A DNA stretch of 64,000 nt from Eledone cirrhosa (GCA_964016885.1 OZ024740.1:44826001-44890000); one strand, 5' to 3'. Positions 26,601-63,410 are shown, counted from the first letter of the stretch. A program made the numbers and translations. The notes: generated by a model from the letters alone, not told the origin.

Positions 26601-29600
26601 AAGTAATGATATGTGAATATATTTCGTTCCTGTGTTTGGAGTAATAGAATGTGGTAGAAACGTTCTAGTTTTATAGACAATGTTATCACACCAATTTCTA
26701 TACATCAAAATGTTTCATTGAGGATGGTTAAAGAACATTAGTCCAGCCCCCTTTTTTTGGAACACTTCAAAGAGTATGCTTGCGGGAACAACAAGAACCC
26801 TCCTATACGTCCTGAATATCTGAGGCTGCAGATAGCGGCTTGATGTTGATTTGAACAAACTTTCCAGTTAAATAACATCAATGACTGAGACTCCAAAGAA
26901 GAAGAATTATAATAATGATAATAATAATGGTTTCTTATATAGACACAAGGCCAGCAATTTGGGGGGAGGGGAAGGTCGATTAAATCGACCCCAGTGCGTG
27001 ACTGGTACTTTATTTTATCGACCCCGTAAGGCAAAGTTAACCTCGGCGGGATTTGAATTCAGATAAAAAAGGGCAGTAACTCTATGCTGCAAAGCATGGC
27101 GTCCGACGCTAGCAATATGTTTTATAATTAGGCTAATTCTATGGAATCTAACCAAAAGACACTAACTGTGGCTTCGGCCTCAATATGTTGTTCTGAAAAT
27201 GGAATAAATAATGCCTTCAGATTTAACACCTCGTACAATCATATCACACATTAGTAAAAATACTATTAAGAACTGATTTTCCATTTACACATATTTGCTT
27301 AATATTGTTCAACTGTCTTTCGCAATCCATATTTTAATAAGGAAGTTTAAATATATATTCCAATTAGTTACACATGTATATTGGGCCACTCATTAAACAA
27401 CAGACCGGAAAATATCTATTTAAACTTCATTCAATTTCAAAAAGTCTTTATGCCTTACTAGCATTTAAATTACTACTTAAATACGCAATTTGTAATATAG
27501 AAACTTTTGTCTCTTGTAGAAATATTAAAAATAAGATTTCGCTCACCTTTAGGACCTTCTTCCTGTGTCACAATATCTGTGAAATTAAATGAAGGAAATG
27601 GCAACTGAATCGCACGCTTTTAAGTATATAGGTTTAATAAAGAAACTTTTGCTAATAAAAACCGAAAATTTGAACATTTTGCGGTTTTACCAATACACGT
27701 CCTTTTGTAAGCAACGAACTAATACCTCAATATGCCTGAAGATTATTATATTTCAATTACGTGAAAATCATAAAATAAATATCTTACATATCTTAAATCA
27801 TCGACAGTAAATATATTATAAAAACAGCAAAATATATTTCAAATATTATCACTTGCTAATTACACATAAAACATATTAGGATGAAATAAAATATCACATA
27901 AGATGTTTTGTGTGACGAAGGCACTCCATATACAACACCAAAACACAATAAATGAAATACAACATTTACACATACACAAACGGAGAAAAACATTTAAACA
28001 TTAAACACTACCGTTACTATAAAACCGAGTATAATATACTTAGTTCAAGGGTTTTCTACTTCTTCAAGAAAGTCGTTAACTCAAAACCGTGATCTTAATA
28101 CAAACATTTTCTGTGGACATTAGATTTTCTGTAATACATATTTCATCAATTCAATAAGACATATGACTTTCAGATATGTATCAAAACATATTTGCAGAGC
28201 AGCAATTCTTACCCGACAACGGAGAATACAAGAGACTACGCGAGAACATACGAAGACGCCGTAATAAAGCTAAGCGACATGTAAAAGCCATTAAAGAAGA
28301 AACACTCACCAACTGTAGATTCCACCTCAGATCGAGTTTCTAACGAAAGATAAAGGTAAATATATACCCTTATCAGTTGGATTATACAGAAATTAGGACG
28401 AACAAACAGGAAATATATCAAGAAAGTATTACATACCCCCGTCAGTTAGATTATAAAGAATTAAGAGACAATAGAAAATATATTGAGAACAACGAATTAT
28501 GTCCAGTTGGTATTACAATGTATTTCTAATTAATTTCGGTTATGCAAAAATATCAAAATTTTAAATTATATGATGTATACAATATGATCGCAATTTAGTA
28601 AAAGTATATCGCATTTTTATGTTGATAAATAGTGAGAGAAACAATTCTAAGGTCGCTTACCTGTACGTGTTATTTGTTCCGTTACAATCTCTGTGGAGTT
28701 AATGAAATATGTAGTTAAATATTTCACAAAATATTTTAAATATAATGCTCAATTACTTCGGATTTATATCGGGAAAGTTTGGAAAATTAAGTTACAAATA
28801 CCTATCAGCAATTGTTAACAACTCTCGAAAAACGAAAACAGAATTTCAAGAATTTAGATATCAAATCCTCAAAGTTATATTTTTATATTAACAATTGGGC
28901 TCTGATAGAAATGACGATAAAAATATCAGACACCTCATTACTCTTGTCATAGAGGCACCTTGTATGGCCACAGAACATACTAACATTACTAAATTAGAAG
29001 TAGATATAATCCTAGCGACCAGACGGACAATCATAGCATTTAGAGCAGAAAGAAGAAGAAGAAATATATATAAGCAGCAGAAGGTTAGAAAAGCAAGTTT
29101 ATCACACATAAATGCATAAACGGAAAGCGCAAACATGTTTTTTTTAATGCAAGAGTTCTTAAACATATTTTTTTTTACAACACGTTATATATAAAATAAT
29201 GATCTCATTATTATATATATAAAGAAATATGTAACTTACAATCTAAAGTAAATCCCAGTCCATGGCTCAGTAGTGTATCCGACCTATGTCACATTATATA
29301 ATTTCTACAGGACGGCTCAAGTAGGGCCTTAAATATATATATTTCTTGTGGTAATCACACTGTGTTTGAAATATTTCTTTATGTGATTATCTGCGTGGGG
29401 TTGATGTTGCATGTGACCGAAAGTGGAACATTGAGTGGCATGTGTATGTATTTGTAAACTTTTAACTGTCAAATATATAGGTTGCGTAAATGCCCGCTAA
29501 TAGTTCGCATATTAAAAGTAAAACAAGACATTGAAAGCAACTGAAGTTATTTCAAATGAAGACGAAATAAAACGATGATAAAATTATCTGTAGTTGACAA

Positions 29601-63410: not shown

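Follow-up and report, generated by a model that had tools for sequence, protein, structure and literature searches.

We investigated a 64,000-nucleotide stretch of the Eledone cirrhosa genome (GCA_964016885.1, OZ024740.1:44826001-44890000; hereafter the window) and the array of microexons that it carries on its minus strand. The window holds 31 intact microexons. They make up about one eighth, at the 3' end, of an array that comprises 257 intact copies over 214,045 bp, between two sets of immunoglobulin (Ig) exons of a giant gene that appears to be of the obscurin/UNC-89 type. These exons are real, coding and common to two octopods. An initial annotation of the window had proposed coding, phase-symmetric microexons, and this is upheld by frame-specific selection, by a gene model of Argonauta hians and by a B-to-A exon joint in a public sequencing run (X4, described below). 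With somewhat better than even confidence, we propose that the array encodes an acidic, disordered stretch serving as spacer or spring and joining two Ig rods, with in-frame skipping to set its length.

The window is AT-rich (GC 0.286) and microsatellites are abundant. A translated scan found the six peptides of the array (types A to F) in register on the minus strand only, and the 31 microexons, read along the transcript from 63410 to 27547, follow the order (B-A-F-E-D-C)x5 + B. Thirty of the 31 are 30 nt long and one is 33 nt (62913-62945), giving a sum of 933 nt, and the introns between them measure 321-8234 nt. Every acceptor is YAG (23 CAG, 8 TAG), every donor is an exon-final G followed by GTRAG, and every exon is phase 1-1. 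All of the numbers in the initial annotation for the 31 exons, namely their order, sizes, sum, splice sites and phase, proved correct on rescanning. The pattern YAG-N29-G-GTRAG has 34 matches on the minus strand of the window and none on the plus strand, compared with a mean of 0.38 and a maximum of 3 in 200 shuffles; the same splice pattern with other exon lengths from 27 to 36 gave 0-2 matches. Four of the 34 matches belong to a seventh microexon type (G) between Ig exons, which had been overlooked. The start that had been given to the array, 27163, does correspond to a copy, the 32nd, but this type-A copy is broken, its donor being lost, and the last intact exon is at 27547-27576. Coordinates below are positions in the window:

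63381-63410, minus strand: microexon B, cycle 1
62913-62945, minus strand: microexon A, 33 nt, one extra codon
62531-62560, minus strand: microexon F
61328-61357, minus strand: microexon E
58017-58046, minus strand: microexon D
57614-57643, minus strand: microexon C
56712-56741, minus strand: microexon B, cycle 2
56253-56282, minus strand: microexon A
55871-55900, minus strand: microexon F
55444-55473, minus strand: microexon E
47180-47209, minus strand: microexon D, preceded by the 8234-nt intron
46778-46807, minus strand: microexon C
46041-46070, minus strand: microexon B, cycle 3; nearest genomic match (27/28 letters) to the A-joined B of X4
45573-45602, minus strand: microexon A, identical to A at 31019-31048
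45037-45066, minus strand: microexon F
40240-40269, minus strand: microexon E
38714-38743, minus strand: microexon D
37944-37973, minus strand: microexon C
37453-37482, minus strand: microexon B, cycle 4
35865-35894, minus strand: microexon A
35291-35320, minus strand: microexon F
34898-34927, minus strand: microexon E
32617-32646, minus strand: microexon D, covered in run X4
32247-32276, minus strand: microexon C
31483-31512, minus strand: microexon B, cycle 5, covered in run X4
31019-31048, minus strand: microexon A; X4 contigs pass into exon-B sequence, not intron (loose end 31050)
30661-30690, minus strand: microexon F, covered in run X4
29934-29963, minus strand: microexon E, covered in run X4
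28661-28690, minus strand: microexon D
28310-28339, minus strand: microexon C
27547-27576, minus strand: microexon B, final intact exon of the array
27163-27192, minus strand: broken type-A copy without its normal donor; use of a cryptic donor would produce a 26-nt exon, out of frame
23654-23683, minus strand: type-A relic, strongly diverged, weak donor; excluded from the counts

The array does not stop at the window's end. The initial annotation had predicted its continuation from a flank motif there, and a C exon indeed starts 96 nt beyond the window, with the array going on for ~175 kb; the motif itself was a weak predictor, with local scores of 37-55 for C flanks and 30-35 for F flanks. 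Type-specific and generic splice-site scans of the neighbouring DNA gave 267 candidates, from which nine broken copies and one doubtful relic (window 23683) were dropped, so that an array first sized at 31 exons comprises 257. Of these, 241 are 30 nt long, 7 are 27, 4 are 24, 3 are 39 and 2 are 33. When joined, they form an uninterrupted reading frame of 7,698 nt (up to 2,565 aa), which is partly given by definition, as an intact exon was required to be stop-free. Splice sites are retained in 258 of the 267 copies, and donors are uniformly strong (GTAAG or GTGAG in 249 of the 257 intact exons). Using intron bases only and allowing exon lengths of 12-99, we obtained 218 minus-strand matches of 30 nt, and none of 30 nt on the plus strand. 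The nine broken copies sit inside the array or at its end. One of them, a type-C microexon at OZ024740.1:45,006,600 (minus strand), has an in-frame stop between intact splice sites; it may act as a poison exon, mark a null allele or stem from an error in the assembly. A search of the 3.0-Gb genome with an F exon and its flanks (up to 2 mismatches) found 31 matches, all at this locus and on this strand, with 0 for a reversed-pattern control, and a genome-wide query with a B exon found 29, again all in this locus; the array is therefore not a dispersed element.

Purifying selection acts on the microexons in the predicted frame. Among copies, the ratio of nonsynonymous to synonymous differences (pN/pS) is 0.385 in this frame but 0.92 and 1.54 in the two alternative frames, and all six types taken singly fall at 0.28-0.53. 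Diversity at the three codon positions is 0.142, 0.067 and 0.21, versus ~0.5 in distal intron flanks. Because the copies are related, such counts are not independent; when each distinct single-base codon variant was counted once, the ratio was 0.44 versus 1.05 and 1.33, and stop variants numbered 0 in the predicted frame versus 5 and 7 in the others (both for intact exons only).

Further support is provided by a second octopod. Argonauta hians P0001 (GAB1597548.1, partial) starts with 44 recognisable units, 41 of the 43 steps being exactly 10 aa, and contains runs in matching unit order joined to the orthologue of the first Ig exon 3' of the array (Ig5), with unit order differing in parts. One G-type linker is found among its 12 Ig junctions. 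The Argonauta genome was annotated with ab initio, RNA-seq and homology evidence, as described in PMC12682272, and we treat P0001 as a model rather than a transcript because this pipeline mixes kinds of evidence. It had been anticipated that annotation would miss the architecture; the Argonauta model caught 44 units, although the gene is split into at least four models.

Evidence for splicing comes from four public runs (X1-X4) of one study, the kind of which is not on record, whose contigs we mapped to window 21500-34400. X1-X3 cover introns evenly, as DNA would, and their contigs traverse exons and introns unchanged. In X4, depth is 0 in 4 of 30 bins, all of them exon-free, while B, D, E and F exon positions are covered at 143-463. 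X4 also joins 21898 to 22337, Ig exon to Ig exon, with splice ends at depth 1772 and at 0 in X1-X3. Three X4 contigs depart from the genome at the acceptor of exon A (31050), and their 30-letter consensus reads as exon B; it agrees with B at 46041-46070 in 27 of 28 letters and is preceded by the last two letters of exon C, not by an intron AG. Given the empty exon-free bins, the Ig-Ig splice joint and the continuation of exon A into B, we infer that X4 is RNA. The joint is most simply explained as the canonical C-B-A chain, because the A that follows B at 46041-46070 is identical to the A at 31019-31048. Another X4 contig begins exactly at the Ig5 acceptor (22603), with 44 further upstream letters. 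Against this background, it is hardly credible that the units are not exons at all but satellite or mobile-repeat sequence, or an artefact of assembly. Errors of assembly can occur in near-perfect tandem repeats such as part of this array, yet the units occupy one locus and strand only, exons are conserved while introns are not, and the codon-position signal, the units in a second species, the exon-exon joint and the unchanged passage of X1-X3 contigs through window exons and introns all speak for exons.

The host gene appears to extend over more than 750 kb and to contain Ig, RhoGEF and Fn3 exons. In minus-strand order it comprises 19 Ig exons (45,196k-45,072k), the microexon array, 30 Ig exons (44,848k-44,761k), SH3, RhoGEF, PH, Ig and Fn3; the tandem Ig domains are of the I-set, with one domain per exon. 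Pfam matches, in order on the minus strand, are SH3_2 (5.6e-7, 44,756k), RhoGEF (4.2e-10, 44,743k) and SOS1/NGEF PH (1.5e-9, 44,731k). The SH3 is identical to that of squirrel obscurin at 37 of 64 positions (58%, E 1e-22), and the best long relatives of the adjacent Ig domains are vertebrate obscurins; close relatives of the Ig exon were found among Argonauta hians proteins only (56-69% identity). By its domain content the host is thus assigned to the obscurin/UNC-89 type, and not to titin. Titin and twitchin were considered as hosts and ruled out by the SH3-RhoGEF-PH triad. The giant Ig protein of the initial annotation is supported, with Ig exons on both sides of the array, as an obscurin/UNC-89 relative rather than a titin. 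The array, the Ig exons and the SH3 share one strand and no intervening gene was seen. After the PH, a large open frame (OZ024740.1:44,724,754-44,725,797, minus strand) with Lys/Pro/Glu/Val/Ala-rich, PEVK-like repeats leads into an Ig domain, and at least 16 Fn3 exons follow the RhoGEF-PH and Ig part (44,438,000-44,712,000, minus strand), with gaps of up to ~130 kb; obscurin and UNC-89 have just two or three Fn3. Eight obscurin/twitchin-like queries found no kinase exon in the 984 kb of OZ024740.1:44,406,001-45,390,000; the end of the gene was probably not reached, as Fn3 exons run on to 44,438k. In this family, kinase domains at the C-terminus are confined to some isoforms.

Comparison of the microexons with each other suggests how the array grew. 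The six types fall into two superfamilies, B/F/D sharing 16-18 of 30 consensus bases and A/E/C sharing 22-24, compared with 9-15 between groups, and the two superfamilies alternate in 217 of the 229 adjacent exon pairs. Because of this alternation and the resemblance within each group, a two-exon, 20-residue unit would have been triplicated to give the six-exon cycle. The 60-aa modular repeat of the initial annotation exists as this six-exon cycle, but the basic module is probably the 20-aa pair, and five-exon cycles lacking B are common; they predominate in an older 5' part, and cycles are irregular at the 5' end. Fifteen tandem units of ~2,915 bp at OZ024740.1:44,919,900-44,963,900 each hold a full six-exon cycle, and neighbours differ at 2-23 positions as assembled; this block is likely to vary in copy number. 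Three 9.4-kb units at the 5' end are ~99.5% alike over the 3 kb compared, and intron flanks outside the tandem blocks are only ~50-70% alike. Array growth is recent, with introns duplicated along with exons. Overall, the two-exon unit would have given rise to 5- and 6-exon cycles, followed by ongoing tandem duplication of whole cycles with their introns and decay of some older copies.

Such growth could in principle be mostly neutral, a runaway duplication in which few microexons are used in mature mRNA and symmetric exons persist as harmless. Fast turnover, the 9 broken copies among 267, the irregular 5' cycles, the partly different unit order in the Argonauta model and a like amplification of neighbouring Ig exons are in keeping with this. 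We nevertheless regard it as very unlikely, given frame-specific purifying selection in six of six types (0.28-0.53) while intron flanks diverged to ~50-60% identity, splice sites kept in 258 of 267 copies and types kept in Argonauta.

The introns also contain other sequences. Multi-kb TA-rich microsatellite blocks (15900-18400, 40500-43700 and 50000-53600) make up the bulk of the longest introns, and a very high-copy short dispersed repeat, resembling a short interspersed nuclear element, is present at 25956-26142, 26750-27107 and 33968-34350 (contig depth in millions). Decayed mobile-element frames are found at 43850-44530, 53720-54440 and 13940-14430. The first presumably derives from a Tc1/mariner transposase, and we take the other two to resemble retroelement endonuclease or reverse-transcriptase ends.

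In the product of the joined array, Glu accounts for 24% of residues, Thr for 17%, Val for 14%, Ser for 9%, Ile for 7%, Arg for 6%, Pro for 4.6% and Lys for 4.3%. It has a mass of up to 288 kDa, a net charge of -407 and a FoldIndex of -0.17 (a charge-hydropathy estimate). This acidic, low-complexity product is predicted to be intrinsically disordered. P+E+V+K make up 47.2% of it. The resemblance to PEVK that had been suggested is borne out by the >40% rule given in PMC12063666, as 2272 of the 2315 250-aa windows exceed this value. Its contour length would be ~0.9 µm for 2,565 aa at 0.35 nm per residue, the value used in PMC12063666. The repeat was not found among proteins of 30-1004 aa and had no Atlas match; among 50% representatives, 6 matches were all unrelated low-complexity proteins on inspection; and a search of proteins of 3202-5000 aa recovered nothing but distant obscurins and titins and further proteins with Ig domains. 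A motif scan of the retrieved proteins found the repeat in P0001 only.

The CK2 consensus, S/T-x-x-E/D, occurs 376 times in the product, compared with 176 +/- 9 times in shuffles. The V/T/I-rich strands and acidic Ser/Thr motifs raise an alternative, that the array forms a multivalent scaffold for binding or modification, with exon number setting valency and with paramyosin or myosin rods, Ig edges or Ca2+ as a periodic partner, or phosphorylation as the modification. The strict superfamily alternation (217/229) and the fixed 10-aa length, which suggest that register matters, fit this idea together with the motif excess, as does the binding of UNC-89 to paramyosin via its SH3 reported in PMC4865318. 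But the excess stems from a few repeated units rather than 376 independent events, five-exon cycles and 24/27/33/39-nt variants disrupt the register, and net charge and hydropathy predict disorder, leaving such a scaffold unlikely in our view.

We favour instead a spacer of adjustable length. The array would be the coding region of a very long acidic insert between the upstream and downstream Ig exons of an obscurin/UNC-89-family protein, and its product would act like titin PEVK, forming an extensible spacer or an entropic spring that links two Ig rods. With all exons in phase 1-1 and divisible by 3 in length, the product could change in 10-aa steps; skipping of single exons or blocks would give lengths from zero to ~2,565 aa, with muscle type as the most likely determinant. 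The nine broken copies, one of them with an in-frame stop between intact splice sites, suggest that individual exons can be dropped. Regulated skipping, and hence a tunable length, and elasticity are suggested by analogy: human titin PEVK has 113 short exons and that of mouse 99 according to PMC6469411, and PMC12063666 reports that PEVK splicing of fly Sls sets sarcomere and myosin filament length. A titin-PEVK-like spacer would then have arisen independently in obscurin.

Several observations weigh against this interpretation. No skipping junction is present among the X4 joints listed, an absence that carries no weight, and the sole microexon joint among them fits the canonical order. The joints seen are local (window 21500-34400) and none links the array to the SH3, the kind of X4 is not on record and all four runs belong to one study. 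Splice sites are uniformly strong, and selection is moderate (0.39-0.44), with counts that are not independent among related copies. Proline is just 4.6%, PPAK-like motifs (PP.K) number 0 in the joined product, and V+T+I amount to 38%, favouring beta structure. The gene already carries a true PEVK-like stretch, in the one large exon after the PH, and published models present obscurin as an M-band organiser, not as a known spring.

Some of these points would be expected if the spacer were constitutive, that is, if nearly all intact microexons were always included and length were set by genomic copy number through unequal crossing-over instead of regulated splicing; phase symmetry would then merely reflect the survival of symmetric units in duplication. 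The strong donors (249/257), the only joint seen being in canonical order and the recent amplification of whole cycles (15 x ~2,915 bp; three 9.4-kb units) agree with a constitutive spacer, as does the lack of notable Rbfox or QKI enrichment in the flanks. For 174 exons (one tandem-block copy kept), Rbfox motifs numbered 2 upstream and 4 downstream versus 1.8, QKI 21 versus 14.7 upstream, MBNL-type 123 versus 80 downstream and TGTGTG 15 versus 2 upstream, counts that are uninterpretable because the flanks are paralogous and microsatellite-rich. However, the stop-bearing copy has intact splice sites and must be left out of the mRNA if it represents neither a null allele nor an error of assembly, and alternative splicing is described for titin PEVK (PMC6469411), Sls (PMC12063666) and the Ig exons of obscurin (PMC2196875). 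We therefore consider constitutive inclusion possible but doubtful.

A bolder form of the tunable spacer is a splice-programmed digital ruler, in which a set number of the 257 cassettes (plus G linkers) per muscle type would give obscurin a reach of 0 to ~0.9 µm and so tune thick-filament length or stagger. Coleoid muscles share myosin isoforms, and thick filaments of squid arm and tentacle measure 7.4 and 0.81 µm in the account of PMC4757648; this tenfold contrast comes from squid, and those tentacle fibres have no M band, which limits the proposal. A ruler is in our estimation distinctly unlikely, yet if true it would be the missing molecular cause of the tuning of coleoid contraction speed by ultrastructure with the same myosins.

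Downstream of the array, the window contains the following Ig and linker exons. Ig5 lies on the 3' side of the array.

22337-22603, minus strand: first I-set Ig exon 3' of the array, 267 nt (Ig5); X4 joins it to the following Ig exon
21632-21898, minus strand: I-set Ig exon
20941-20970, minus strand: linker microexon G, new type, 30 nt, phase 1-1
19027-19293, minus strand: I-set Ig exon
18808-18837, minus strand: linker microexon G
7086-7352, minus strand: I-set Ig exon
5854-5883, minus strand: linker microexon G
3816-4082, minus strand: I-set Ig exon
2587-2616, minus strand: linker microexon G

Type G occurs after most downstream Ig exons, on to OZ024740.1:44,774,751, in 24 copies, of which 20 have both AG and GT, 4 are without the acceptor AG and 4 fall in the window. 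It could serve as an optional hinge between Ig domains. High depth at the Ig-Ig joint was considered as a sign of G skipping and dropped, as contig depth sums paralogues and several Ig pairs are without an intact G. The summing of paralogues also led us to set aside comparisons of depth from exon to exon. At OZ024740.1:44,795,000-44,816,000 we found about ten near-identical units of ~2,010 bp, each with one Ig exon and one G microexon, which represent a very recent tandem amplification of Ig domains. Candidate microexons of 30 and 24 nt, unrelated to types A-G, lie between upstream Ig exons at OZ024740.1:45,084,554 and 45,129,590 (minus strand).

Taken as a PEVK-like spacer, the array would bring the titin-PEVK design, frame-neutral cassettes encoding a low-complexity spacer between Ig rods, into a second giant muscle protein. 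The form is extreme, as 257 exons of ~10 codons are spread across 214 kb where human PEVK has fewer than half as many. The array is a candidate explanation for differences in filament architecture among cephalopod muscles that do not differ in their myosins. The locus also offers a clear case of the birth and death of an exon array, with a putative two-exon unit, cycles, recent tandem blocks and decayed copies, and a test bed for how the spliceosome handles hundreds of near-identical 30-nt exons.

A literature search covering few subscription journals found no published description of such an array. The nearest systems each share part of its design. Like the host gene, vertebrate obscurin has tandem one-exon Ig domains, then SH3-DH-PH and more Ig, as laid out in PMC2196875, whereas in UNC-89 the triad is near the N-terminus (PMC4865318) and here it follows the Ig array. 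No microexon-built insert in the Ig array is part of the descriptions given in PMC2196875 and PMC4865318. Here, at least 16 Fn3 exons come after the PH, and 10-aa linker microexons stand between Ig exons. An elastic KSP-repeat segment of UNC-89 found no confirmation in the literature consulted and plays no part in this comparison. Drosophila Sls is likewise an invertebrate giant Ig protein with a spliced low-complexity spacer that scales sarcomere and myosin filament length (PMC12063666), but it is an I-band titin with few, very large exons (exon 32 = 1700 aa), where here a similar length is built from 257 pieces. Runs of symmetric exons of up to 36 bp that can be dropped in frame are known from the micro-exon genes (MEGs) of Schistosoma (PMC8293314); on this size scale, 254 of the 257 exons are 24-33 nt and 3 are 39 nt, all multiples of 3. 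MEG products are small secreted or surface proteins, composed largely of microexons, with signal peptides and a raised ratio of nonsynonymous to synonymous substitution (dN/dS). The array described here encodes part of the interior of a giant protein that is intracellular, shows purifying selection (0.39-0.44) and consists of tandem copies of six main types. In vertebrate titin PEVK, too, tandem Ig blocks enclose more than 100 short repetitive exons that annotation often misses (PMC6469411), and the region is acidic, of low complexity and predicted to be disordered. Unlike titin, the gene here is obscurin-type, 241 of the exons are exactly 30 nt and they follow strict 2- and 6-exon cycles. Titin PEVK has ~70% P+E+V+K and PPAK motifs in the account of PMC6469411, versus 47%, Pro 4.6%, no such motif and a Thr/Ser-rich composition here, and its splicing regulation and elasticity are established, while those of the present array are proposed. 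The array is PEVK-like in design and not a member of titin PEVK, from which it differs in both gene and composition.

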